Shown: positions 48,682 to 62,038, numbered from the stretch's first letter. The stretch: DNA of 64,000 nt from Verrucomicrobiota bacterium (GCA_015061905.1 SUVQ01000008.1:25867-89866), one strand, 5' to 3'. Notes: a model not told the origin generated them from the sequence alone. Numbers and translations: made by a program.

Positions 48682-48808
48682 TGTTGCTGAAAAATGTGAA
48701 TAGCAAAAAAACAGTTTTCGTTGCCGCTTGGCAAGCGTTTTTTTGAAAAATGAGAAAAACGCTTTGATTTATCGGCAGAGGTGATCGGGCGATTCCCGGA
48801 AACTCTGT

Positions 48809-49648
48809 TTACGGAGATTCCTTCAATTCGTAGACGACGGGAACGACGAAGGCGGCGGGAAGCGCGGAGCGCAGCTCGGCGGGAACGCAAAAATCGGCGG
48901 CGACGCGACGAAGCGTTTCCTCCGCTCCGGAAACAAGCGATCGGTGCGCTCCGGATTTTTCAGTCTCGATACTTTTGATTTTCCCGCAAATACCGATTGA
49001 AACGCGAAGAAAAACCGTTCCCGAGCGTCCGTTGCGTCGTGCCGCCTTCGGATAGAATTTTTTGCGGGAGACGGCTTCGGCAAGTGCGCCGTAAATGGTT
49101 TGCTCGGCGGCGGCACGTGCGGCTTCGTCAACTGCGGGAACGCTTTCGGGCGGCGGCTGACAAGCCTGCTTTGTTTGCGGTTGCGGCGCCGGCGGCGGGA
49201 TTTTTTCCTCCGGGCTTTCCGTCTCTTCCGGCATTTCTTCTGCCGTTTTTTCCTGTTGGATTTCCGCTTTCGGCACTTCTTCCGCAACAGTTTCGCGCAA
49301 GGCGGATTCGTCAATTTTTTCAAATCCAGCTTCCGGCGGCTCCGGTTTTTGCGAAACTTCCGGTTCGGGCTTCGCAGGTGAAGATTCCGCTTCGACGGGA
49401 GGCTCTTCCGGCGCGGTTTCGATTTCTTCGGCAACAGGCGTGGGAACGTAATTTTGAAAACGCACGGCGATGCGCGCGGGAACGTATTGCGCCGTTTCTG
49501 CGGCTTCATTTTCCGCTTCCGCGCTTTTTTCGGCAACCAAAGCGAGCGTTCCCGCAAACAAAAGCGTGCAGACGGCAACGGAGCCCAGAGAACTCAGGCG
49601 CTCCGCGTCTTCAGTCGTTTTTTTCAACCATGAAAAGCAGATTTTCAT
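48809..49648 (-). CDS. tonB: TonB family energy transducer
   Basis: N-terminal TM, Pro/Glu-rich linker, C-terminal YPKAARRNGRSGTVFL. Confidence 0.85.
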   Translation of the reverse strand: MKICFSWLKKTTEDAERLSSLGSVAVCTLLFAGTLALVAEKSAEAENEAAETAQYVPARIAVRFQNYVPTPVAEEIETAPEEPPVEAESSPAKPEPEVSQKPEPPEAGFEKIDESALRETVAEEVPKAEIQQEKTAEEMPEETESPEEKIPPPAPQPQTKQACQPPPESVPAVDEAARAAAEQTIYGALAEAVSRKKFYPKAARRNGRSGTVFLRVSIGICGKIKSIETEKSGAHRSLVSGAEETLRRVAADFCVPAELRSALPAAFVVPVVYELKESP

Positions 49649-50021
49649 TTCCCTGTTTTTTAGCTTCGTCCATCAGGTTCATCACGGAGCCGAACGGCGC
49701 GGTTTTATCGGAAAAAACTTCAAAAATTTTTCCGGCGTTTTCCCGAAGGGCAGTTTCCAAGTCGACGGGCGGCGTTTCGACTCCGTCGAAAAAAATCGTT
49801 CCCGCGGCATCAATCGTAATCGTGCAAACGGGTGTTTTTTCTTTTTCGTCAACGTGCTTGGCACTTTCGGCGTCGGGCAAAAGCACGTCAAATGCGGGCT
49901 TGGCGAAAGTCGTTGCGACGATGAAAAAAATTAAAAGCATGAAAATGACGTCGATGAGCGGCGTCAGCTCGATGCTGATTTCGTCGTCGATTTCAAAATC
50001 GTTTATTTCGTGGCAATGCAT
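49611..50021 (-). CDS. exbD: Biopolymer transport protein ExbD
   Basis: LTPLIDVIFMLLIFFIV; start MHCHE at 50021. Confidence 0.92.
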   Translation of the reverse strand: MHCHEINDFEIDDEISIELTPLIDVIFMLLIFFIVATTFAKPAFDVLLPDAESAKHVDEKEKTPVCTITIDAAGTIFFDGVETPPVDLETALRENAGKIFEVFSDKTAPFGSVMNLMDEAKKQGNENLLFMVEKND

Positions 50022-50031
50022 CTTTTTATAA

Positions 50032-50179
50032 GTGATAGGGGATGGTTGATAACGGATAGGTAAAAACTGATAACTGATAGCTGATAAGTAATACCGAAAG
50101 CTCATCAAAATGATTACGACTTTTCACCTGCCGGTTATCAGCTTTCCCCTATCCGTTATCAGTTTTTACTTATCAGTTG
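50032..50179. repeat. 7-bp-periodic inverted element (TGATAAC-type) at exbB/exbD junction
   Basis: tgataacggatagg (50047) pairs with cctatccgttatca (50148); supplies the exbB stop. Confidence 0.85.
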
Positions 50180-50803
50180 TTCCTTATCATTTTTCTTATT
50201 TTTCGCGATGGCGGCGGCGCGGTAAGAAAATTCGACGGCGACAATCATGTAGCCGAACAATTTGTTGCGCAGGTAAAACAAAACGGCGAGCGTGGGCACG
50301 GCGATAACGATGCCGAGCACGGTCGTCCAAAGTGCTTGCCCGATACCGAGCGCGAGGCGCGCGCTGTCCGTAGCGGCGTTCCCGCCGGAGCCGAGCACTT
50401 CGAAAACTTGGATAATTCCGAGCACCGTTCCCAGCAAGCCGAGCAGCGGAGCCGTTGCCGTAATCAGGCGCAAGGTTGTGAAGCTCCGTTTGGTTTTGTA
50501 AAAGTATCGATGAAAAAGATACGCGGATTCGGCGCGCAAATCGTCGGAATGGTGACGGTGTTTCGTTGCAATGTCTCGCACAACGCACACGAGCGGATTG
50601 TTCGGCAAAACGGACTCGTCAAAAAGCAAATCGGCGTTCCCGTCTTCGACGTTTTTGAAAAATCGGCGAAACTGAAAATCGACGAGGCAAAGTTGCAGAT
50701 AAATTTTTACCGAAAGAAAAACGGCAAGCAAAAGCGCAGCGGCAAGCGGGATTCCCACAGGACCGAGCTTTTCGTAATATTCGGCGCAGTAGTGTTGTAT
50801 CAT
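50159..50803 (-). CDS. exbB: MotA/TolQ/ExbB proton channel protein
   Basis: APLLGLLGTVLGII..F, GIGQALWTTVLGIVIAVP. Confidence 0.92.
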   Translation of the reverse strand: MIQHYCAEYYEKLGPVGIPLAAALLLAVFLSVKIYLQLCLVDFQFRRFFKNVEDGNADLLFDESVLPNNPLVCVVRDIATKHRHHSDDLRAESAYLFHRYFYKTKRSFTTLRLITATAPLLGLLGTVLGIIQVFEVLGSGGNAATDSARLALGIGQALWTTVLGIVIAVPTLAVLFYLRNKLFGYMIVAVEFSYRAAAIAKNKKNDKEQLISKN

Positions 50804-50833
50804 TGGGTTTTGTAAGTTGAAGATCGGTTTATG

Positions 50834-50911
50834 GAACCACGGAATACACGGAATTCACGGAAAGATTTTTTTTGTTCGGAGTTTCCGTGTTTTCCGTGCA
50901 TTCCGTGGTTC
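50834..50911. repeat. 9-bp-periodic inverted element (CACGGAA-type)
   Basis: gaaccacggaatacacggaattcacggaaa ... tttccgtgttttccgtgcattccgtggttc. Confidence 0.9.
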
Positions 50912-50920
50912 TTTTTTTCA

Positions 50921-52330
50921 TTAAATTTCAATTTTGTAGGTGGCAAGTAACGACAAAAATTCGAGGTCGTGCGTGATGAGTAGCACTGTGTTCCCGCGTT
51001 CGGCGTAGGTGTGAAGCATGCGCGCGATGATGCGCATATTGCGCCCGTCGAGCCCGCTGGTCGGTTCGTCGAGCACGAGCAGCGACGGTTTTTTCATCAA
51101 AACAGAGGCGATGACGAGGCGTTGTTTTTCGCCGCCGGAAAGCGATTGCGGGTGGCGTTCCCGTTTGTCGTCGAGCCCGATTTCGCGGAGCAAATCAAGA
51201 GCCTCGCGCTCGGCTTCCTTTTCCGGAAGCGGCGAAGCGGAAACGAGCTCCTCAAGCACGTTGCGCATGTAAAGCTGAATGTCGGTGTTTTGCATAACGA
51301 AGCCGCCGTCGTCGAGCAGGCTCGCGGCTTTCGCGGGAACGCCGTTTCGGAGAATCGTGCCGCCGTTTTTGCGCGGAAGCTTCAGAAGCCCCGTAATGAT
51401 TTTTGCAAAAGTCGTTTTCCCTGCACCGTTTTTTCCGACAACGGCGGTAATCGCGCCGTGCGGAATCCGAAAATCCCGCGTGCCGTCAAAAATCGCTTTT
51501 TCCGTGTTCGGGTATTTGAAAAAAAGATTTTTGCAAACCAACGCGGCGGGAACGCTTTCCGGAATTTCTTTGAGCGGCGGATTGGCGGAAACGCGCACGT
51601 CGCGCAAACCCAAGGACGCATCGCCGTTGTTTTCAAGCTCGTCGAGTGCGTTCCCGCCGGGTGCTTCGAGGCGGCGCACGATTTTCCCTTCGTTCAAAAT
51701 CAGAATTTTGTCCGGCACGCCGCGAAGCCAGTAAATGCGGTGATCGACAACGACGATGGTGAATCCTTCGCGCTTAAGTTCGCGGCAGAGCGCGGCGAGC
51801 TCTTCCGTCGCTTCGGGCGAAAGATTCGCCGTCGGCTCATCAAAAACAAGCACGCACGGGCGCATCGCGATAGCCGTAGCGATGACGGTTTTTTGCTTTT
51901 CGCCGGACGAAAGCCCGAAAAGGCTGCGGGAACGCAAATGCTTGAGCCCGAGGCGCTCAATCGCTGCGTCCGTGCGGCGCAAAATTTCTTCGCGGGAAGC
52001 AAGCCGCCATTCGAGGCTTCCGGCAACTTCGCTTTCGACGGTCATCGACAGAAACTGGCTATCCGGATTTTGAAAAACGGAACCGACGATGCCGGAAACT
52101 TCTTCGAGCGAAGCGGGCGCGTTCCCGCCGATTTTGACGGTCCCGCGGAGCTCGCCGCGAAAATGAAACGGAATCAGCCCGTTGAGCACGCGCAACAGCG
52201 TGGATTTTCCGCAACCGGACGGACCGGAAATCAGCAACACTTCGCCCGCGCCGAGCGAAAAGGAAATGTCCGTCAGCGCGTCTTTTTTCGCGAACGGATA
52301 ACGGTAAGAAAGGTTTTCAATCAAAAGCAT
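50921..52330 (-). CDS. ECF-type transporter ATPase with two ABC domains (A-A' fusion)
   Basis: GPSGCGKST / LSSGEKQK / DEPT and GKNGAGKT / LSGGEKQR / LDEPTSGLD; start MLLIE at 52330. Confidence 0.92.
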   Translation of the reverse strand: MLLIENLSYRYPFAKKDALTDISFSLGAGEVLLISGPSGCGKSTLLRVLNGLIPFHFRGELRGTVKIGGNAPASLEEVSGIVGSVFQNPDSQFLSMTVESEVAGSLEWRLASREEILRRTDAAIERLGLKHLRSRSLFGLSSGEKQKTVIATAIAMRPCVLVFDEPTANLSPEATEELAALCRELKREGFTIVVVDHRIYWLRGVPDKILILNEGKIVRRLEAPGGNALDELENNGDASLGLRDVRVSANPPLKEIPESVPAALVCKNLFFKYPNTEKAIFDGTRDFRIPHGAITAVVGKNGAGKTTFAKIITGLLKLPRKNGGTILRNGVPAKAASLLDDGGFVMQNTDIQLYMRNVLEELVSASPLPEKEAEREALDLLREIGLDDKRERHPQSLSGGEKQRLVIASVLMKKPSLLVLDEPTSGLDGRNMRIIARMLHTYAERGNTVLLITHDLEFLSLLATYKIEI

Positions 52331-52344
52331 GGGAAAAAAGTCGG

Positions 52345-52436
52345 AACCGCGAATGAACACGAATTTTCACAAATTGTTTTTGAAGTATGTATTTTCAAAG
52401 ATGTTTCATTTAAAAACTTCGCGTTCATTCGCGGTT
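52345..52436. repeat. 9-bp-periodic inverted element (CGCGAATGAA-type)
   Basis: aaccgcgaatgaacacgaa ... ttcgcgttcattcgcggtt. Confidence 0.85.
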
Positions 52437-52441
52437 TCTTT

Positions 52442-53281
52442 TTAGTGAAGAAAAGTCGTTGCGGGAACGGGCAGCATGAATTTTAAGGTTAAAACGGCTA
52501 CAGCGGCGGAAGTCGCGAACGCGAGCACGCACCAATCGCGGGAACGCATCCGGTGCTCTGCCGCACAAATACAACGCTCGCTGCAACCGACGCGCCGCAC
52601 TTCGCACATCAGCACAAGATTGTCCGCGATGCGCAAAGTGCGCACGCATACGGGAACGACAACATAACGCAAAAAGCTCAGCGGCGACGCGACGAGCGAG
52701 AAGAAATTCATCTTCCGCCGCCGCACGCGCAGGCTTTCGTAAAGTTGGCGAATGTCGTCGACAAAGCTCGGCACAAAACGGCAACACACCGTCAGCGGAA
52801 TAAAAATGATGCGCGGCAGGCGCATTTTCCGCATTACGGAAATAAATTCCTGATTGTCAAACGTCAACCCGAGCGCGAGAAAAACATTCATGCTTACCGA
52901 AATCCGCAGAAACGGAAGAAGCACGGTCGCGAAACCTTGGTCGCCGAGCACAGAAGCTAAGCGCAGAAAGCTTTCCCGCGTGCTTTCCTCCGGCAAAAGC
53001 GGCGCGCATTCCCGCAAAATCCAAACAAAAGCGGGAATGAAACAATACGCCATTCCGAGCATGAGAAACGTTGCCGCATACATCGCGAAAACGGGCTTGA
53101 AGCGACGCAAATTCAGCACGTAAACAAAGGTCAGAAAATTGACGGCAACAAGCAGACGCCAATCATTCAGCGCGACCGAGCAACACGACGCAAGCAGGGA
53201 AACGACAAGCTTAGTGCGCATGTCGAGCGTCGCGACAAAAGGCTTTTTTGTATTTTCGGAATCAATACGTTTGGGCTTCAT
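52442..53281 (-). CDS. ECF transporter transmembrane component T
   Basis: LDMRTKL, hydrophobic segments, RFVP..DDIRQLYESLRVR; start MKPKR at 53281. Confidence 0.82.
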   Translation of the reverse strand: MKPKRIDSENTKKPFVATLDMRTKLVVSLLASCCSVALNDWRLLVAVNFLTFVYVLNLRRFKPVFAMYAATFLMLGMAYCFIPAFVWILRECAPLLPEESTRESFLRLASVLGDQGFATVLLPFLRISVSMNVFLALGLTFDNQEFISVMRKMRLPRIIFIPLTVCCRFVPSFVDDIRQLYESLRVRRRKMNFFSLVASPLSFLRYVVVPVCVRTLRIADNLVLMCEVRRVGCSERCICAAEHRMRSRDWCVLAFATSAAVAVLTLKFMLPVPATTFLH

Positions 53282-53334
53282 CTGATTTTTTGAAAGAAAA
53301 ATTAACGAACAGTGAATAACGCATTCTTCAAAAT

Positions 53335-53913
53335 TCATCGTTCCCGGATGAGCCCGGCATGACGAAGTTCCTTCACGAATTTGTAGCCGGCGGGAAGCCC
53401 GACGAGCACGCTCCCGCAATAGCCGAGCGCAATCATGAACGCTCCCGCCGCAAAAAGTTGCGCATTTTCCCGCAGGAAAACAAAGCTCATGCCGAGCGCG
53501 ATCCCGCGGGAAAACAAATCATACATCGCCACGCCGACCAAGACACTCAAGGTGTTTTTGTAGCCGCCCGTCGCCGCAATGATCCAATCACTTAAAATCG
53601 CCGCGAGCAAATTCGCGGGAGCGAGAACAATCATCAGCGAACCCGACATAAAAAACGAAATCACGACGTTGATCAGGCAATACAGGCAAAGCACGCCGAA
53701 TTTGCGCACGCGGCAAACCAGCACGACGAGTAGCGCCGTCGTCAACCCGTTGCGGATAAAAAGCGCAATCGGATTCGGACCGCCGCCGACGAGGCTGACG
53801 GCAAGCCCGGAAATGCGAATGAGCGCGGAAAAAATCCCGACGAGCACGAGATGCTCCGTCGTCCAATAAAATTTTTTCAACGCGGGAACCGTTTTGGCGG
53901 GAACGTCGCTCAT
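53335..53913 (-). CDS. MptD-family putative ECF S component
   Basis: WTTEHLVLVGIFSA, RVRKFG, FVKELRHAG; ~6 TMs. Confidence 0.78.
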   Translation of the reverse strand: MSDVPAKTVPALKKFYWTTEHLVLVGIFSALIRISGLAVSLVGGGPNPIALFIRNGLTTALLVVLVCRVRKFGVLCLYCLINVVISFFMSGSLMIVLAPANLLAAILSDWIIAATGGYKNTLSVLVGVAMYDLFSRGIALGMSFVFLRENAQLFAAGAFMIALGYCGSVLVGLPAGYKFVKELRHAGLIRER

Positions 53914-55349
53914 GCGTTTGCCGCCTCCGCCGGAAGCATTCGCGGGCGATTATGCCCGCCGTGCGAGCCGCGCCCGAGCGGATTTGCGTTCCCGTGCGGC
54001 GGCGTTGCGCTTCCGGTCGCGTTCCCGCATTTTCCGAAAAGGATTTTTGCGATCATTCCCATGACGAGCGAAATCAGCGTCACGTGCCAGTATTCGCCGA
54101 GCGGAGAAAGCTTGTAGCGGTTTTCTCCGTCGGGAACGAGAATACCGGCGCGTATCCAGTTTTTCCATACAGCTTGCGCTTCTCCGGAAAGCAGTTCCGC
54201 CGAAATTTTCCCGGGCTCGAGAAATCCGAGTTCGAGCTGATGCGTAACAACGTTTTTGAAACGGATTCCCGGATTGTCGGGAACGGCGACCATCAGACCT
54301 TTTTTCCCTGCGGCGACGGTTTCCGTATATTTTTTCAAATCCGGAATCTGCATAAAACTGTAGCCGCCGAGGAAGCCGCCCGCGCGCGAGCCGAACGGCA
54401 CGAGCTCCATGCCGGTTTTCGTCCCGTGGTTATACCAATTGCGTTCGAGCGGCGTGCGTCCCCAGTGCGTCATCGAAAGGCGCTTCCAACCGAGGCGCGT
54501 CAGGCGTTCCCGCGCCGTCATAAAAAGCGCGTAGCGTTCGTCATAGCTCAAATCTTTTCCCGCGCGCGCAAGGCTCGTTCCCGGGAGCAGTTTTAGCTGG
54601 TAAAGGTCTGCGCCGTCCACGGGAACGACTTCCGTAATCATGCGCAAATCCTCGTCCCAAAGTGCCGGCGTTTGTCCGGGAAGCCCGTAAATAAAATCGA
54701 GCATGAGCGCAATTTTTTCTCCGCCGATTTTTTTGACGAGCGAAAGGCGATCGACGAGTTCTTCCTTCGACATGATTCTGCCGAGCTTGCGGCGCAGCTC
54801 CGTGTCGAAAGTTTGCACGCCGAAGGAAAAGCGGTTCACGCCGTTGTCGACGCAGGCGCGGATTTTTTCTTCGCCGAAATCGCTCGTGCGCCCTTCGACG
54901 GTAAACTCGTAATCCGGCGCGATGCGGAAATTTTTATGAATAAACGAAACGAGCGCGGCGAGGTTTTTGGCGGAAAGATCGGTCGGCGTTCCTCCGCCGA
55001 AATAAACGACGTCGATCGTTTCTTCGGCAAGCTGCGGCGTTCCCGCGAGCGCGTTTTTCATTTCCGCAAGCACGCTTGTCGTGTAGCCGTCGAGATCGGA
55101 AGTGCGCGTTGCGTTGGAATAAAAACTGCAAAACGAGCAGCGATGCAGGCAAAACGGCACGTGCAGATAAATCGCGCGGCGTACGGTGCGTTTGGGTGAC
55201 GCGGCGGCTTGCGCCCACGCTTCCTGCGGGTCCGGCGGCGGCGCGTTCCCGTGGCGGCGGAAATTCTCCGTGTGATTGAAATGCTTTTTTTCTTCAAGCC
55301 GCGCAATCACGTCTGCCGGAGCTTCGGGAAAAAGAAAATCTTCAAACAT
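53910..55349 (-). CDS. HemN-like radical SAM protein, HutW/ChuW-like (heme processing)
   Basis: YLHVPFCLHRCSFC, YFGGGTPT, GVNRFSFGVQTF, YGLPGQT; operon context with TonB receptor and flavodoxin. Confidence 0.8.
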   Translation of the reverse strand: MFEDFLFPEAPADVIARLEEKKHFNHTENFRRHGNAPPPDPQEAWAQAAASPKRTVRRAIYLHVPFCLHRCSFCSFYSNATRTSDLDGYTTSVLAEMKNALAGTPQLAEETIDVVYFGGGTPTDLSAKNLAALVSFIHKNFRIAPDYEFTVEGRTSDFGEEKIRACVDNGVNRFSFGVQTFDTELRRKLGRIMSKEELVDRLSLVKKIGGEKIALMLDFIYGLPGQTPALWDEDLRMITEVVPVDGADLYQLKLLPGTSLARAGKDLSYDERYALFMTARERLTRLGWKRLSMTHWGRTPLERNWYNHGTKTGMELVPFGSRAGGFLGGYSFMQIPDLKKYTETVAAGKKGLMVAVPDNPGIRFKNVVTHQLELGFLEPGKISAELLSGEAQAVWKNWIRAGILVPDGENRYKLSPLGEYWHVTLISLVMGMIAKILFGKCGNATGSATPPHGNANPLGRGSHGGHNRPRMLPAEAANA

Positions 55350-55370
55350 AAGAAGCTTGGTCGAGGGATG

Positions 55371-55477
55371 GTGAATAATGAATAACGAATTGAATTCGGC
55401 TTCCGCCGAAAAAAGTTCTAAAAGTTTTCGCGAAGCGAACGCACTGCGTTATTCGTTATTCACTATTCATTATTCAC
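55371..55477. repeat. 7-bp-periodic inverted element (TGAATAA-type)
   Basis: gtgaataatgaataacgaa ... ttattcgttattcactattcattattcac. Confidence 0.9.
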
Positions 55478-55974
55478 TAAAAAAGATTTCTGAAAGCGGA
55501 CTGAGCGGCTTCAAGATCGGCGGCATCGGGATGCTTCGCGGCTTCTTCCCAGCGGCGTAAGCGTTCCGGGTTCGGCGAATGCGGATGCTCGGCGGGAAGT
55601 TTCGACATCCACGAAGTCAGCTTCGGATCAATCGCGCCCTGACACCAGAATTTGGCGACGACTTCGCAGCCTTCGCCGAGCAATTTCGTTCCCGCCTCGA
55701 ACGAATCCGTCGCATGTTGCGAATGCGGATACGCTCCGAGCGTGAAGAAAATGCCGACTTTTTTTCCTCGAATTTTCGGCATGTAAGCCGCCATTTCCGT
55801 GTTCGCCGTGCCGCGATCCACCCAGTAGCCGACGACGACGAAATCGTAGGCGTCGGGCTCCGGTGCTTCGCTCACGGGAAAAATGTCCGTTCCCGCGGGA
55901 AGGACGGCGTGAATGGCTTCCGCGATTTTGCGCGTGTTGCCCGTTTTTGAAGAATAAACGATGAGGGTTTTCAT
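55477..55974 (-). CDS. Flavodoxin family protein
   Basis: IVYSSKTGNTRKIAEAI, GYWVDRG, FFTLGA. Confidence 0.9.
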   Translation of the reverse strand: MKTLIVYSSKTGNTRKIAEAIHAVLPAGTDIFPVSEAPEPDAYDFVVVGYWVDRGTANTEMAAYMPKIRGKKVGIFFTLGAYPHSQHATDSFEAGTKLLGEGCEVVAKFWCQGAIDPKLTSWMSKLPAEHPHSPNPERLRRWEEAAKHPDAADLEAAQSAFRNLF

Positions 55975-55980
55975 GTTTTT

Positions 55981-56020
55981 TGGGTAACTGGGAACTGGTA
56001 ATTAGTGGTTGGGAATTGGG
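55981..56020. repeat. 7-bp repeat (reverse complement of GTTCCCA/GTTACCA family)
   Basis: tgggtaactgggaactggtaattagtggttgggaattggg. Confidence 0.7.
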
Positions 56021-58231
56021 TTAAAATTCATATTTGAGCGACGCCCAAAAGCTGCGCCCGGGCTGAAGGTAATCGAGGTGCGGGAGCTCGTAGCGTTTGT
56101 CCAAAATATTGTCGATGCCGACTGCGAGCGTAAGCTTTTCAAAAAATGCGCTGTCGCTTTTGTCAAAAACATCGAGCCCGATTGCAAAATTAAGCGTTGC
56201 CCAGCCGGGCTTGCGCTGAGTTTTTGAGCCGCCGGGCGCACTGACATCGGAGATTTTCTCTTCGGCGGCGGCGTTCCCGCGCAGATTAAAATCCGCCCAC
56301 CAGTTGCGATTGCTTTCGGTGTAAGTCGCAAGCACGCCGGCTTTTCCGAAAATTTCCGGCTGCCCGGTGTCGTAAGTCGAGCCGGAAGCGTTGTCGAAGC
56401 GGCGGCGCAAAAACGTGGCAACGGCGTAGGGTTTTATCGCGGCATCTTTCCCGAGTTCGAAAAGATAAGCCGTCGAAAGTTCCGCACCGAAGCTTTTTGC
56501 GGAATCGTAATTGACGAACCAAACGGACGTTGCGCCCGTTCCCGCGACGGCTCTGGTTTCCGTGCCGATGTAATCGTCGGAATCCGTGTAAAAAACGGTC
56601 GCGTCGAGGCTGAAGTTTCCGTTGTCGTAGCGTGTTCCGAGTTCGTAGCTGATGCTTTTTTCCGGCTCGAGATTCGGGTTCGCGTGTGTTTCCGTGCTTG
56701 CCATCGCGGAGCCGATATAAAGCTCATTAATCGAAGCGTAGCGATAGCCTTGCGAGACGGTTCCGCGAAACGTCCAATTCTCGATTTGCGAGTTTACGAG
56801 CGAGAGCGAAAATGTCGCGTCCGCGTCTTCCTTGCTTTGTTGCGGGAGCGTTTCAACGGTCGTTCCCGCGTTTGTTCCCGCGCGGCGGACGACGTGCGAC
56901 GTGCCTTCGTCGAACTCGTTTTTGACGTAAGTGCCGCGCGCACCGAGAACAAGATTCCAGCCTTCGGCAAAATTCCATTCGTCCTGCGCAAAAAGCGCGG
57001 CGGTCAAAATGTCCGCGTCGTAATCATTCGTGCGCGTCATATCGACGACGTAACGCGTTCCCATCGGGAGCGTCATCCAATTTTGGGTGGTCGTTTCTTC
57101 GTGCGAATCTAATTTTACGTAATCAATTTGCGCGCCGACGATGAGATAGTGCGTGTCCGCAATCGAAAAATCCGCCTGTATTTCCGCTCCGTAGGCGTCG
57201 TGGAGGTTGCGGCGATCTGCGTTCACGTTAATCGTCATCGGCGCGACCGTCTGCGTAATGTCTTGGACAAAATGTTTGTCCGTTTTTTGAAAATAAGCGT
57301 CTGCGCGGAATTTCACGAAAGTTTCGGAAATATCTTTTACTTCAAGAAAAAGTCCGATTTTTTCGCGGTCCCAGCGCGGGAGCTCCATGAATAGTAAGTC
57401 GTCGCCGGAAGCGACTTCCGAGCGACCGGCGAAAGATTCGATTTTTAATCCGAAGCTCGCATTTTCCGAAATGTCGTAGGCGAGATAAGCACTTGTGTTT
57501 TGAAAACGATAGGACGTGCGGTCCACGCGCCCGTCGGGCGATTCGATGTCGCCGTGGTCTTCGTCGGAAAACGAAACGCGCGCGGAGAAATCGCCGTAGC
57601 GCGCATTCAAATCGTAGTATTGATCAAGCCCGCGCGTTCCCGTGTCGCCGCGCACGCTCGCGCTCCCGTGAACGCCTTCTTTCCCGGATTTCTTCGTGAT
57701 AATATTAACAACGCCGCCGATCGCCTCCGAGCCGTAAAGCACCGATGCCGGACCTTTGATGACTTCGACGCGCTCAACGTCCTGAACCGACATTAAAAGC
57801 GGCGCGCCGTTCATGCCTTTGGTTTCCGAAATTCTTTGCCCGTCGACAAGAATCAGCACGCGCTGATTGCTTTCGCCGCGAATATTCACCTGCTTAAAAC
57901 CGGGCGTTCCATTGGCTTCGACCTGCACGCCGGGGACGTCGTCGAGCAAATCTGCGACCGTCGCGGCGGAACTTTTCGTGATTTCATCTCCGCTGACAAC
58001 GGCAACGCTCATTGGCACGTCCGCCATTTCCATTTCGTGCTTGGCGGCAGTAACGCGCACCGCTTTTCCGGTGATTGCTTTTTGCGCGGGAACGTTTTCC
58101 GCCTCCGCTGCTTCGACGCTTTCATTCGCCGAATTTTCCGGCGGCGTTCCTGCCGATTCCTGCGCCCAAAGCGCAACGCAGGGTAGCCACGCTACGCCCG
58201 CGAAGATTAAAAAAGAAGGGTTGATTTTCAT
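56021..58231 (-). CDS. TonB-dependent receptor, probably heme
   Basis: Signal peptide, plug LILVDG..VERVEVIKGPASVLYGSEAIGGVVNIIT, HANPNLEPEKS, C-terminal PGRSFWASLKYEF. Confidence 0.92.
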   Translation of the reverse strand: MKINPSFLIFAGVAWLPCVALWAQESAGTPPENSANESVEAAEAENVPAQKAITGKAVRVTAAKHEMEMADVPMSVAVVSGDEITKSSAATVADLLDDVPGVQVEANGTPGFKQVNIRGESNQRVLILVDGQRISETKGMNGAPLLMSVQDVERVEVIKGPASVLYGSEAIGGVVNIITKKSGKEGVHGSASVRGDTGTRGLDQYYDLNARYGDFSARVSFSDEDHGDIESPDGRVDRTSYRFQNTSAYLAYDISENASFGLKIESFAGRSEVASGDDLLFMELPRWDREKIGLFLEVKDISETFVKFRADAYFQKTDKHFVQDITQTVAPMTINVNADRRNLHDAYGAEIQADFSIADTHYLIVGAQIDYVKLDSHEETTTQNWMTLPMGTRYVVDMTRTNDYDADILTAALFAQDEWNFAEGWNLVLGARGTYVKNEFDEGTSHVVRRAGTNAGTTVETLPQQSKEDADATFSLSLVNSQIENWTFRGTVSQGYRYASINELYIGSAMASTETHANPNLEPEKSISYELGTRYDNGNFSLDATVFYTDSDDYIGTETRAVAGTGATSVWFVNYDSAKSFGAELSTAYLFELGKDAAIKPYAVATFLRRRFDNASGSTYDTGQPEIFGKAGVLATYTESNRNWWADFNLRGNAAAEEKISDVSAPGGSKTQRKPGWATLNFAIGLDVFDKSDSAFFEKLTLAVGIDNILDKRYELPHLDYLQPGRSFWASLKYEF

Positions 58232-58315
58232 GTTTTTCTCGTCGTGTCGCGCACTCCGGTCTGTCCGGTCGCGGGCGAGAAAGTTGTTTTTGAGTCGCTC
58301 CGTGTTTCGGTCGCG

Positions 58316-58456
58316 TTATTGAGTGAGTCGGATTTTTTCCTTCACTTCGATTTGAACGACCTTCCCGTCGTGAACCACCACGGTCAGTTCGCCGAACTTC
58401 AGCGAAGCGAGCTGATCCGCAATTTTTTTCATAACTTCCTGCGAAAGCGTTTTCAT
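58316..58456 (-). CDS. YezD/DUF2292 family small protein (46 aa, absent from ORF track)
   Basis: Hand translation MKTLSQEVMKKIADQLASLKFGELTVVVHDGKVVQIEVKEKIRLTQ. Confidence 0.85.
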   Translation of the reverse strand: MKTLSQEVMKKIADQLASLKFGELTVVVHDGKVVQIEVKEKIRLTQ

Positions 58457-58479
58457 CGTAAAGAGCTTTCTATTAATAA

Positions 58480-58494
58480 TGAGACTAAGTCTCA
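58480..58494. promoter_or_regulatory. Putative Fur-like 7-1-7 operator upstream of heme operon
   Basis: Perfect inverted repeat TGAGACT-A-AGTCTCA abutting a minus-strand TTGACG (58500-58495). Confidence 0.6.
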
Positions 58495-58702
58495 CGTCAA
58501 GATGTAAATCGCAACCGTTTTGGTTTGTTTTTTTGTCGCTCTACGGTTCTCGCGGGAAAAATTTTCATTTTTTCTTTCGGAAATCTCTATCCCTCCTCAA
58601 TTTTTACGCTAAAAAAAACGCGCTCCGCTACAAAGACGCGAAGCGGAAAAACTTAGCGAATTTGCGGCGGGAGCGCGCCGGGGAAAAGGAATGATTTCCC
58701 GT

Positions 58703-60376
58703 TTATTGCTCCAGAATTTCGAGGATTTGCGGGAGCGATTTTTTGCCGAAGGCGATAATTTTGCCGTTTACGGCGATCGCGGGAACGCTCATGACGTTGT
58801 AGCGTTCGCGGATTGCGGGGAAATGCGCGATGTCGAGAACATCGGTCGAAATTTCCGGATTTTCCAGCGCGATGCGTTGCGTCGCGACGACGACTTCCGG
58901 GCATTGCGTGCAGGAAAGCGAAACGAGCACTTCGATTTTGCGCGGCGCGAGCGCGCGGATGCGTTCCCGCGTGGCGTCGTCGAGTGCTTGCCCCGGTCCG
59001 GCGGCGTTATAAAGAGCGATGATGAAGGAGTTGATTTCGTGTCCGCCGGGAACGCCGTGGAAACTTGCTCCGAGCGATTTTCCGTCGGCATCGCAAATCG
59101 TGACGCAAGGGCGAAGCGCAGTCGCGTCCGTTCCCGCGGGAGTGCCGAAGCGTAATTCGATTTTGTCGGAAAGTTCGGTGATTTCTTCGAGGAAATTTTT
59201 CAGCTCGTCGGAAACGGCGTTGTTGTCGTCGAGTTCCGCCGCGAGGACGATTTTATTTTCGAAGCGGGCGAAAACACCTTGAAGTTGGGCGCGTGCGGCT
59301 TCGTCGAAGAATTTTCCGTCGCTGTCGGCGTTTTCGGAATCTTTTGCGGGAACATTTTCCGTTACAGTCTGCTTTTCGTCGGCGGCGGGCTTGCGGATTT
59401 CGCGGGAAGCGCGAGTCGTAATGCCGGCAAGTTTGCGTGCGTCGGACAAATATTTTTCGAGCGCGGTGGCGGAAGTCGCACCGTCGGCAACGGCGGTAAC
59501 GACTTGGCGCAAGCGTTTGCGGCGCAAATCGCCTGCGACGTAAACGCCGTCGATTCCGGTTTTTCCTTCTTCGTCGCAAATCGCGAATCCGTCCTTGTCG
59601 ATTCCGATTTTATCTTTGATTAAGTCGCTCGCGGGAGCGTAGCCGACGAAGACGAAAACGCCGAAAGAGTCGCCGTTTTCCGCGCGGTATTCCTCCGTTT
59701 GCCCGGTTTTGTTATTTTTCAAAATCGCGCTTTCGGGAGCGGCGTTCCCGCGAATTTCCAAGAGTTCCGTGTTGAAGCGCACCGAAATTTTCGGATTTGC
59801 CAAAACTTCCTCCGCGACGCTTTGCGCGCAGGAAAATTCGTCGCGACGCACGAGCATCGTAATTTTTTTCGCGTAGCGCGTGAGGAATATTGCTTCTTCG
59901 CACGCGGAAAATCCGCCGCCGATGACGAAGAGCTCTTTTCCCGCGAAAAATTCTCCGTCGCAGGTCGCGCAGTAGGCGACACCGCGCCCGCGAAATTCAG
60001 CTTCCCCTTTGAAACCGACCGCGCGCGGACGCGCTCCCGCCGCGATTACAACGCCGAGCGCGCGAATGTCTCCGCGCGTCGTTTTGACGGTTTTGACCGT
60101 TCCCGTGAAATCGAGTTCCCGCGCTTCGGCGGCGAGAAATTCCGCGCCGAAATTTTCCGCCTGCTGCCGCATCGTTTCCGTGAGCGCCTTGCCGGAAGTG
60201 CGCAAAACGCCGGGATAATTGACGACCTCGTCGGTGATGGTGATTTGCCCGCCGATGTTTTCGCGCTCGAGCACGAGCACGCTAAAACGCGCGCGGGAAA
60301 GGTAAATTGCGGCGGAGAGCCCGGCGGGACCGGCGCCGATAATGACGGCATCGTAGATGGAATCGGAAAAATTCAT
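58703..60376 (-). CDS. Thioredoxin reductase fused to C-terminal thioredoxin-like domains (AhpF homolog, TIGR03143-type architecture)
   Basis: GAGPAGLSA, YCATCDG, GVYVAGD; C-terminal SCTQCP; downstream of ahpC. Confidence 0.88.
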   Translation of the reverse strand: MNFSDSIYDAVIIGAGPAGLSAAIYLSRARFSVLVLERENIGGQITITDEVVNYPGVLRTSGKALTETMRQQAENFGAEFLAAEARELDFTGTVKTVKTTRGDIRALGVVIAAGARPRAVGFKGEAEFRGRGVAYCATCDGEFFAGKELFVIGGGFSACEEAIFLTRYAKKITMLVRRDEFSCAQSVAEEVLANPKISVRFNTELLEIRGNAAPESAILKNNKTGQTEEYRAENGDSFGVFVFVGYAPASDLIKDKIGIDKDGFAICDEEGKTGIDGVYVAGDLRRKRLRQVVTAVADGATSATALEKYLSDARKLAGITTRASREIRKPAADEKQTVTENVPAKDSENADSDGKFFDEAARAQLQGVFARFENKIVLAAELDDNNAVSDELKNFLEEITELSDKIELRFGTPAGTDATALRPCVTICDADGKSLGASFHGVPGGHEINSFIIALYNAAGPGQALDDATRERIRALAPRKIEVLVSLSCTQCPEVVVATQRIALENPEISTDVLDIAHFPAIRERYNVMSVPAIAVNGKIIAFGKKSLPQILEILEQ

Positions 60377-60407
60377 CACGTTTTTCGGAGAGAAAATTGA
60401 GAGAGGT

Positions 60408-61333: not shown

Positions 61334-62038
61334 ATGAAAAAATACGAACAAAAACCCCTGAACTACGCCTTGGACGCGCTCGAGCCGAACATGCAGAAGT
61401 GCACGCTCGAATTTCACTACGGAAAGCACCACGCGGCGTATGTTGCGAACCTGAATGCCGCGCTGGAAAAAGCACCGGAGTTTGAAGCACCGGAGTGTCC
61501 GGCACGCTTGATTCACCACTTGCACCACGTTCCCGAAGCGATTCGCACGGCGGTGCGCAACAACGGCGGTGGGCACGTCAACCACGCGTTTTTCTGGAAA
61601 AGCCTTACGCCGAACGGGCAGGGCGCGCCGGTCGGCGAACTCGCAAAGGCGATAGAAAAAGATTTCGGCTCGTTCGATGCTTTCCGCGAACAGTTTGAAG
61701 CGAAAGCGATGTCGCATTTCGGCGCGGGCTGGGCGTGGCTCATTCTGAAAAAAGACGGTTCGCTCGCCGTTTGTTCGACGCCGAATCAGGATAATCCGCT
61801 CATGCCGGAAAGCGTCGTTCCCGGAATTGAGCGCGGACGCCCGATTCTCGCGCTCGACCTTTGGGAGCATTCCTACTATCTGCAGTATCAGAACCGCAAG
61901 GCGGAATACGTTAAATCGTATTGGAATATTGTGGATTGGGAACAAGCGGAAAAGGTTTATCAAAAGGCACTTGAGCACCGCCGCGCGAAGGCGGAGGGCG
62001 GCTCCTGCGGATGCTCCGGAAAAAGCTGCATGATTTAA
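61334..62038 (+). CDS. sodA: Superoxide dismutase, Mn-type signature
   Basis: HYGKHHAAY, NNGGGHVNH, TPNQDNP, DLWEHSYY; Cys-rich tail. Confidence 0.93.
   Translation: MKKYEQKPLNYALDALEPNMQKCTLEFHYGKHHAAYVANLNAALEKAPEFEAPECPARLIHHLHHVPEAIRTAVRNNGGGHVNHAFFWKSLTPNGQGAPVGELAKAIEKDFGSFDAFREQFEAKAMSHFGAGWAWLILKKDGSLAVCSTPNQDNPLMPESVVPGIERGRPILALDLWEHSYYLQYQNRKAEYVKSYWNIVDWEQAEKVYQKALEHRRAKAEGGSCGCSGKSCMI

Follow-up and report, generated by a model that had tools for sequence, protein, structure and literature searches.

We analysed an operon in a 64,000-nucleotide stretch of DNA (the window) from a Verrucomicrobiota bacterium (GCA_015061905.1, SUVQ01000008.1:25867-89866). The operon occupies positions 48809-58456 of the minus strand and brings together a TonB-dependent outer-membrane receptor, a transporter of the energy-coupling factor (ECF) type, a radical S-adenosylmethionine (SAM) enzyme and a flavodoxin. 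The host is a gut Opitutales bacterium with a genome of 2.08 Mb that is 98.3% complete; loci that are 99% identical occur in metagenome-assembled genomes, from sheep rectum and other sources, named Opitutales, Candidatus Spyradosoma or Candidatus Spyradenecus.

Gene content of the operon and its genome

A preliminary description of this DNA had listed nine or ten co-oriented genes. Open reading frame (ORF) calling combined with Pfam and NCBIfam searches recovered all ten, each belonging to the family named there (Table 1). The radical SAM and S-component genes overlap in an ATGA sequence, as do the S-component and EcfT genes, which indicates translational coupling at both junctions. The operon has a single promoter region and short intergenic gaps. 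Behind the AhpF-like gene upstream of it stands a terminator, and the promoter-like site lies ahead of the YezD gene. A scan for consensus promoters and terminators inside the operon found nothing above chance.

Table 1 Features of the operon in order of transcription (window coordinates)
Feature	Coordinates	Strand	Basis and remarks
Promoter-like site	58472..58500	-	read from sequence: TTGACG (58500-58495), 17-nt spacer, ATTAAT (58477-58472)
YezD/DUF2292 mini-protein, 46 aa, first operon gene	58316..58456	-	PF10055, 60.4 bits
Leader RNA element between YezD and receptor genes	58237..58312	-	RNA fold -23.1 kcal/mol, z-score -2.29
TonB-dependent outer-membrane receptor, heme-type, 736 aa, signal peptide	56021..58231	-	Plug and barrel domains
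HmuF/FldH-type flavodoxin, 165 aa	55477..55974	-	Flavodoxin_3, 179 bits
ChuW/HutW-clade class C radical SAM methyltransferase, 479 aa	53910..55349	-	TIGR04107
ECF S component, 192 aa, MptD/Trep_Strep-related 'KELRHAG' subfamily	53335..53913	-	PF09605
EcfT transmembrane coupling subunit	52442..53338	-	PF02361 (CbiQ); start ATG 53338, ATGA overlap with S-component stop
Fused EcfA-EcfA' double ATPase, 479 aa	50921..52360	-	two ABC_tran stretches; likely start ATG near 52330
ExbB proton-channel subunit	50159..50803	-	PF01618
ExbD	49611..50108	-	PF02472; likely true start ATG near 50021
TonB, N-terminal membrane anchor and TonB_C domain	48809..49648	-	PF03544
Terminator-like hairpins between tonB and rplU	48700..48765	-	hairpin 48733-48764 and gap sequence; probable operon end

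The receptor gene is the only one in the genome with a Plug domain, the EcfT gene gives the sole EcfT-like match, and the operon TonB is the only TonB found by tblastn; the YezD and FldH-like flavodoxin genes are single-copy as well. Genome-wide searches returned neither a FecCD permease (PF01032) nor a class-2 periplasmic binding protein (PF01497), so that the absence of a periplasmic binding protein and of an HmuUV-type permease, which had been reported for the operon, extends to the whole genome. ChuX/HutX, ChuY and ChuS are likewise absent. A ferrochelatase and a HemN ortholog are present, and heme is for this reason likelier to serve as an iron source than as a needed cofactor.

Receptor, predicted heme-processing proteins and ECF transporter

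The best NCBIfam match of the receptor is the TonB-hemin family TIGR01785, and heme-receptor models score about twice as high as BtuB models (95-111 bits). Its nearest solved structures are the receptors PhuR (8THE) and ShuA (3FHH). The NPNL loop with a histidine pointed out in the preliminary description can be read in the translation as the box YRYA...TH-A-NPNL-EPE, which aligns with the FRAP/NPNL box of ChuA.

The radical SAM protein matches TIGR04107, the ChuW/HutW family, with 383.0 bits, the match spanning model positions 14-418 of 419; HemW, the next-best family, reaches 157. It keeps the CxxxCxxC motif (PFCLHRCSFCSF) and a HemN-type GGGTP motif (YFGGGTPT), both of which align with ChuW, and is 35% identical to ChuW of E. 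coli O157 over 396 residues. To place it, we built a tree of 90 rows (IQ-TREE in quick mode, LG+G4) that included ChuW, HemN and HemW from the E. coli O157 Sakai chromosome, two paralogs from the same genome as the operon, and cluster-linked enzymes. All ECF-linked radical SAM enzymes, that of the window among them, form one clade with ChuW (support of 100 in the Shimodaira-Hasegawa-like approximate likelihood ratio test, SH-aLRT; stem length 1.2), and E. coli HemN, E. coli HemW and the two paralogs fall outside it. The heme reading of the preliminary description had been made to depend on whether this enzyme groups with HutW/ChuW or with non-heme clades, and it survives this comparison. Radical SAM enzymes from four cluster-bearing genomes (Parasutterella, Turicimonas, Desulfobaculum and Pseudodesulfovibrio) pass the TIGR04107 cut-off with 473-512 bits. 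The Opitutales enzymes sit on a long branch (0.88), and this accounts for the lower score of the window's enzyme. Judged by motifs and phylogeny, the protein is probably an anaerobilin synthase. No solved structure of ChuW itself was found in the PDB. Apart from this, the ChuW-like gene in the cassette of Turicimonas muris YL45, a cultured mouse-gut strain (L079/L096, G002:C15:133542-134798) carries one in-frame TGA, which could reflect a pseudogene, a selenocysteine codon or an assembly error.

Among solved structures, the flavodoxin has one strong match, the heme-bound FldH of F. nucleatum (PDB 8G64; E 1.2e-17, residues 1-154). Its His132 aligns with chain residue 137 of 8G64, which is the FldH heme ligand His134 in the numbering of PMC10404700. 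HmuF and FldH bind flavin mononucleotide and heme, hand heme to HmuW and reduce anaerobilin (PMC10404700). By analogy with these homologs, the operon flavodoxin is probably a cytoplasmic heme carrier and anaerobilin reductase and hence more than an electron donor: the family given in the preliminary description stands, and the simple electron-donating role attached to it does not. Such a flavoprotein probably also covers the roles of ChuX and ChuY, whose genes the genome lacks.

These observations bear on an explanation in which intact heme is imported as a cofactor and the radical SAM protein is a HemW-like chaperone or has another non-degradative role. A score just under the ChuW/HutW cut-off, the long branch, HemW as next-best family and the missing ChuX and ChuY would all agree with it. 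We consider it quite unlikely, however: the enzyme groups with ChuW and not with HemW at full SH-aLRT support, the ferrochelatase and HemN ortholog make synthesis of the bacterium's own heme probable, and the HmuF/FldH-type partner corresponds to the anaerobilin handler of a degradative pathway (PMC10404700).

The S component matches PF09605 with 37.1 bits, above the cut-off of 28.7, and its close homologs bear the NCBI label 'MptD family putative ECF transporter S component'. An AlphaFold2 model (pLDDT 87) shows a six-helix bundle, for which the best Foldseek hits are the ECF S components 5EDL, 3RLB, 4MUU and 5KBW, with ThiT and RibU among them, with template modelling scores of 0.52-0.58 and probabilities of 0.99-1.0 at weak E-values of 0.018 upward. 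No solved structure for the S component was found in the PDB. Its homologs form three groups (close Opitutales relatives, proteins of about 55% identity and proteins of 35-48% identity), and an alignment of 20 of them has invariant GGGxNP, RE and C-terminal KELRHAG motifs. Family matches and alignment suggest that the protein belongs to a divergent subfamily related to MptD/Trep_Strep. The family appears compact, as only 141 of 1.84 billion cluster representatives match the S-component profile at E <= 0.001. The best NCBIfam matches of the fused ATPase are the ECF ATPase families TIGR04520 (284 bits) and TIGR04521 (258 bits). With a six-helix S fold, and with EcfT and two EcfA domains encoded beside the S-component gene, the module has the composition of a dedicated (group I) ECF transporter, and we propose that its S component is the heme-binding subunit.

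Metagenomes contain natural fusions of a ChuW-like enzyme with a distantly related S component. P0203, a 647-aa protein with three member sequences that the Joint Genome Institute (JGI) names 'anaerobilin synthase', gave a weak full-length match to the S-component profile. Its residues 29-425 are ChuW/HutW-like (302.6 bits), and residues 463-645 align with the whole S-component profile (hhalign probability 95.8%). On the same contig (L115:5630-10471, JGI metagenome 3300077524), EcfT and ATPase genes lie downstream, a gene for a ChaN-type heme-binding protein lies upstream, and hemP is nearby. P0213 is a second, partial fusion of this kind. On their domain composition, these proteins appear to tie S components of the wider family to the ChuW reaction.

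The cassette across genomes and the proposed heme route

Scanning species-representative genomes for the S component gave 106 relatives, and 80 of these were retained; the search pattern was the KELRHAG motif, so the result describes that subfamily. All titled loci are in diderms, namely Verrucomicrobiota, Kiritimatiellota, Lentisphaerota, Thermodesulfobacteriota, Pseudomonadota (Sutterellaceae and Succinatimonas), Deferribacterota, Spirochaetota and Cloacimonadota; two records lack a phylum name. The subfamily thus appears small and limited to diderm anaerobes of eight phyla. Its spread within the home phylum is patchy and cassette-like, with the S component in 15 of 401 sampled genomes and 5 of 184 genera.

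Partner genes were located by tblastn with the window proteins and with partners from the three first loci. One cassette recurs, in which radical SAM comes first, followed by receptor, S, T, AA', ChuX/HutX, flavodoxin, ExbB, ExbD and, in some cases, TonB. In the 54 loci flanked by 5 kb or more on either side, which are interrelated and hence do not give independent counts, a ChuW-like radical SAM gene is present in 51, a flavodoxin in 48, a TonB-dependent receptor in 36, ChuX/HutX and ExbD in 30 each and ExbB in 29. The HutX of the cassette passes its equivalog cut-off (138.7 against 110). HutX is never present in cassettes of the Planctomycetes-Verrucomicrobia-Chlamydiae group (Opitutales, Kiritimatiellia, Lentisphaeria), and a YezD gene is added in Opitutales loci alone. 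Five further Opitutales assemblies (L008, L010-L013) share the complete ten-gene order, with proteins 43-99% identical, and so does a sixth assembly titled Candidatus Spyradenecus sp. (L009); this recurrence is far above chance.

The same loci speak to the possibility that a TonB-dependent siderophore or metal uptake set and an unrelated ECF micronutrient importer lie together by chance or co-regulation. This is very improbable. Most Kiritimatiellia and Lentisphaeria loci do consist of an ECF-ChuW core lacking an adjacent receptor, and the window's receptor scores below its heme-family cut-off; against this, in the 36 loci with a receptor its gene is co-oriented within 8 kb and mostly directly upstream of the S-component gene, in six of the eight phyla. 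The operon itself has one promoter region, short gaps and ATGA overlaps, and it holds the genome's only receptor, EcfT and detected TonB.

Synteny across eight diderm phyla, HutX equivalogs and HmuF/FldH-type flavoproteins in the same clusters, natural ChuW-S-component fusions and the lack of an alternative importer in the genome all favour the earlier suggestion of an ECF transporter as the inner-membrane step when a diderm takes up heme. Computational evidence thus strongly supports the heme reading, and we consider it likely that the operon is a self-contained system for oxygen-independent acquisition of heme (porphyrin) and release of its iron, with the ECF transporter at the inner membrane. 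This reading builds on the observed gene identities, operon structure and coupling, the radical SAM clade, the S fold, synteny, the fusions and the absence of alternative importers. The substrate, the direction of hand-off, the enzyme activities and all regulation are what we infer, and the biochemical steps are modelled on the characterised homologs ChuW/HutW/HmuW, HmuF/FldH, LhaSTA and BtuB/BtuM.

In the proposed pathway, the receptor would take heme across the outer membrane with energy from the operon's own ExbB-ExbD-TonB, and the membrane-embedded S component would capture it directly in the periplasmic leaflet, with no soluble binding protein. The dedicated EcfT-EcfAA' would then move heme to the cytoplasmic face at the expense of ATP, where the HmuF/FldH-type flavoprotein would receive it and present it to the ChuW-clade radical SAM methyltransferase. 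This enzyme would open the ring and free the iron, and the flavoprotein would then probably reduce the toxic anaerobilin product. Expression probably begins at a promoter that is under repressor control and has a palindrome in its spacer, and a second checkpoint is probably formed by the YezD mini-protein together with the conserved hairpins in the leader ahead of the receptor gene. A stricter version, which we put forward tentatively and regard as doubtful, is a channelled relay in which heme is never free, passing from the receptor side to the S component and, at the cytoplasmic face, on to a membrane-docked ChuW/HmuF pair without a binding protein, and in which an undescribed switch of YezD protein and RNA hairpins is the Opitutales gate. 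Such a relay would explain why the radical SAM and S-component genes are coupled here and fused in some metagenomes.

Several observations weigh against the operon being a heme acquisition and iron-release system. Three key proteins score below their NCBIfam cut-offs: the receptor reaches 205.3 bits on TIGR01785 against a cut-off of 316.85 (a receptor from a typical cassette, L046, is likewise below it at 221 bits), the radical SAM protein narrowly misses the TIGR04107 equivalog cut-off of 400, and the S component scores 38.6 bits on TIGR02185, where the cut-off is 76.45. At the residue level, Met140 of the receptor occupies the position of the plug-region histidine of ChuA (TGHLNG), the periplasmic face of the S component has no invariant His, Tyr, Cys or Met in the 20-sequence alignment viewed on the model topology, and only 22 of 36 ECF-linked homologs of the flavodoxin retain its His132. 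The long Opitutales branch leaves some room for an altered activity of the enzyme. The S domain of P0203 is distant, with pairwise BLAST against the window's S component not significant, and profile methods alone link the two. No Fur box was recognised at the operon promoter, and iron control is accordingly not supported. A complementary distribution of ECF and FecCD importers was rejected, as four of five other genomes in the phylum that carry the cassette, a congener included, have a FecCD permease; the ECF transporter is therefore not generally the sole option. ChuW, finally, also accepts metal-free porphyrins (PMC10114669), so that the tetrapyrrole may be one other than heme.

This last point leads to the question of whether the substrate is another tetrapyrrole (a corrinoid or B12 precursor, another metalloporphyrin or a free porphyrin) that a ChuW-like enzyme modifies or salvages with no release of iron from heme. 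In addition to the porphyrin tolerance of ChuW and HutW (PMC10114669) and the sub-equivalog scores of the key proteins, the receptor matches BtuB models, and BtuB with the S-component-like BtuM is a known diderm B12 route (PMC6072759). Yet the B12 models score only about half as high as the heme-receptor models, an Rfam search of the window found no cobalamin riboswitch or other element, and the radical SAM enzyme lies within the ChuW clade. Partners in related clusters are also of heme type: HutX equivalogs, FldH/HmuF flavoproteins and, at the fusion locus, ChaN and HemP. We therefore judge a tetrapyrrole other than heme unlikely.

Textbook heme uptake in diderms proceeds from a receptor to a periplasmic binding protein and on to a FecCD-type ATP-binding cassette (ABC) permease. 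The operon departs from this canonical arrangement, having neither a class-2 binding protein nor a FecCD-type permease of the ChuTUV/HmuTUV kind. A close parallel is the hmuTRUVWF locus of F. nucleatum, also a single locus in an anaerobe with a TonB-dependent heme receptor, an ATP-driven importer, a ChuW-clade enzyme (the anaerobilin synthase HmuW) and an HmuF/FldH flavodoxin (PMC10404700). The hmu importer, HmuT-HmuUV, pairs a binding protein and a FecCD-type permease, whereas the operon uses ECF components (S, T and AA') and adds its own ExbBD-TonB and a YezD front end. With chuA/chuTWXYUV of E. coli O157:H7 and hutWXZ of Vibrio, the operon shares the logic of a ChuA-type receptor and a radical SAM enzyme of the same clade; unlike the E. 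coli system, it stands in a genome that lacks ChuT, ChuUV, ChuX, ChuY and ChuS.

ECF-type heme import has been described for monoderms only, with LhaSTA of Staphylococcus lugdunensis as the importer (PMC7299338). The operon resembles LhaSTA in that both have a dedicated S-T-A transporter proposed to import heme for its iron; LhaS is assigned to no family in that paper. LhaSTA-type systems belong to monoderms, have no outer-membrane step and go with Isd/Sia surface systems and oxygen-dependent degradation, whereas the ECF transporter here stands behind a TonB-dependent receptor and is joined to anaerobic ring opening. SiaFGH of group A Streptococcus and a Lactobacillus sakei system are presumably akin to LhaSTA. 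A diderm precedent for the passage from receptor to S component is BtuB/BtuM of Thiobacillus denitrificans, in which the receptor feeds an inner-membrane protein of S-component fold with a tetrapyrrole-type cofactor and without a periplasmic binding protein (PMC6072759). Unlike the operon's S component, BtuM works alone, with neither EcfT nor ATPases; a cysteine mediates its binding of cobalamin, and its sequence is unrelated.

A full-text literature search found no description of an ECF-heme-TonB-ChuW/HutW arrangement. The locus and its relatives in Sutterella/Parasutterella, Desulfovibrio/Mailhella, Geobacter, Deferribacteres, Kiritimatiellia, Lentisphaeria and spirochaetes indicate a third, undescribed diderm heme route, from a receptor to an ECF S component, wired to oxygen-free breakdown. 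New here are the Opitutales version, with its YezD and hairpin front end and no HutX, a genome with the cassette as its sole TonB-dependent and sole ECF system, and the ChuW-S-component fusions. That genome, with its only TonB-dependent receptor, EcfT and detected TonB in one operon, is the cleanest natural case. Since many of the carriers live as anaerobes in the gut, such a route would matter for competition over heme iron in the colon. Two published observations fit circumstantially: the cassette carrier Parasutterella bloomed when hemin was present in ex vivo gut communities (PMC12702856), and in one meta-analysis the TIGR02185 family ranked first among the eggNOG features that set fecal metagenomes of colorectal cancer apart, a result left uninterpreted by its authors (PMC8748837). 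The latter was the only paper in the literature searched to mention the Trep_Strep/TIGR02185 family. P. excrementihominis YIT 11859, Turicimonas muris YL45 and Mesosutterella multiformis are carriers in culture, which makes the hypothesis directly testable.

Two variations of the cassette were observed in addition. In nine cassettes of the Desulfovibrionaceae type, a gene with the PNPOx fold, which is that of HutZ-type heme enzymes, sits between flavodoxin and exbB (e.g. L043:13752-14240); an NCBIfam search with it gave no match, and it may encode a second heme-handling enzyme. In seven Kiritimatiellia or Lentisphaeraceae loci (L006, L015, L016, L020, L025, L029 and L031), an ABC exporter (ABC_membrane and ABC_tran) follows the ECF genes at the usual place of the flavodoxin. 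This pairing of exporter and ECF genes resembles the mycobacterial mpt and streptococcal sia loci, and the exporter may export heme or anaerobilin.

Putative regulatory front end and neighbouring features

The Opitutales version of the cassette is set apart by four features: a leading YezD gene, a near-invariant leader of RNA hairpins behind it, a promoter palindrome that resembles an operator, and the absence of HutX. The YezD gene with the leader hairpins looks like a regulatory front end and not like a part of the transport machinery.

The YezD homologs are 46-47 aa long and are named as YezD family. The gene is present in all six loci with the ten-gene order (five from Opitutales or Candidatus Spyradosoma and one from Candidatus Spyradenecus) and in none of the remaining loci searched (L004-L087). 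As to its function, PDB sequence and homolog searches returned close Opitutales relatives only, and a literature search gave nothing.

The leader contains two hairpins of the form GACCG-loop-CGGAG (58298-58312 and 58254-58270) within an outer stem, in which UUCUCG pairs with CGAGAA just upstream of the receptor AUG and which covers a purine-rich stretch. A 45-nt block of the leader is near-invariant among relatives whose proteins share only 63-80% identity; it offers no covariation. The leader had no match in Rfam.

In the promoter, the spacer is filled by a 7-1-7 palindrome, TGAGACTtAGTCTCA (58494-58480), which looks operator-like. The Opitutales relatives (L008, L010-L013) keep TTGAC, the right arm GTCTCATT and an A/T-rich -10 region. 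A genome motif scan found one copy of the palindrome, and relaxed scans of the genome with this motif revealed no regulon. The sole near copy (G000:C10:164818) was rejected as an operator: its region (C10:164800-164850, equal to L112:4300-4345) forms the loop region of a GC-rich hairpin, a terminator lying between convergent genes. The genome has two Fur-family genes; the palindrome as a canonical Fur box was ruled out by alignment (12 of 19 positions).

Within the operon, long hairpins occupy two intercistronic gaps, between flavodoxin and radical SAM genes (55350-55476) and between EcfAA' and ExbB genes (50804-50920). Their arms consist of short periodic units such as TGAATAA-type and CACGGAA-type repeats, and they may be mRNA-stabilising or processing elements. 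Directly upstream of the operon lies the AhpF-like gene (58703-60379, minus strand), which encodes a flavoprotein disulfide reductase with a C-terminal thioredoxin domain, and an ORF on the opposite strand is found nearby (61334-62038, plus strand). The heme operon may thus be placed among oxidative-stress genes.

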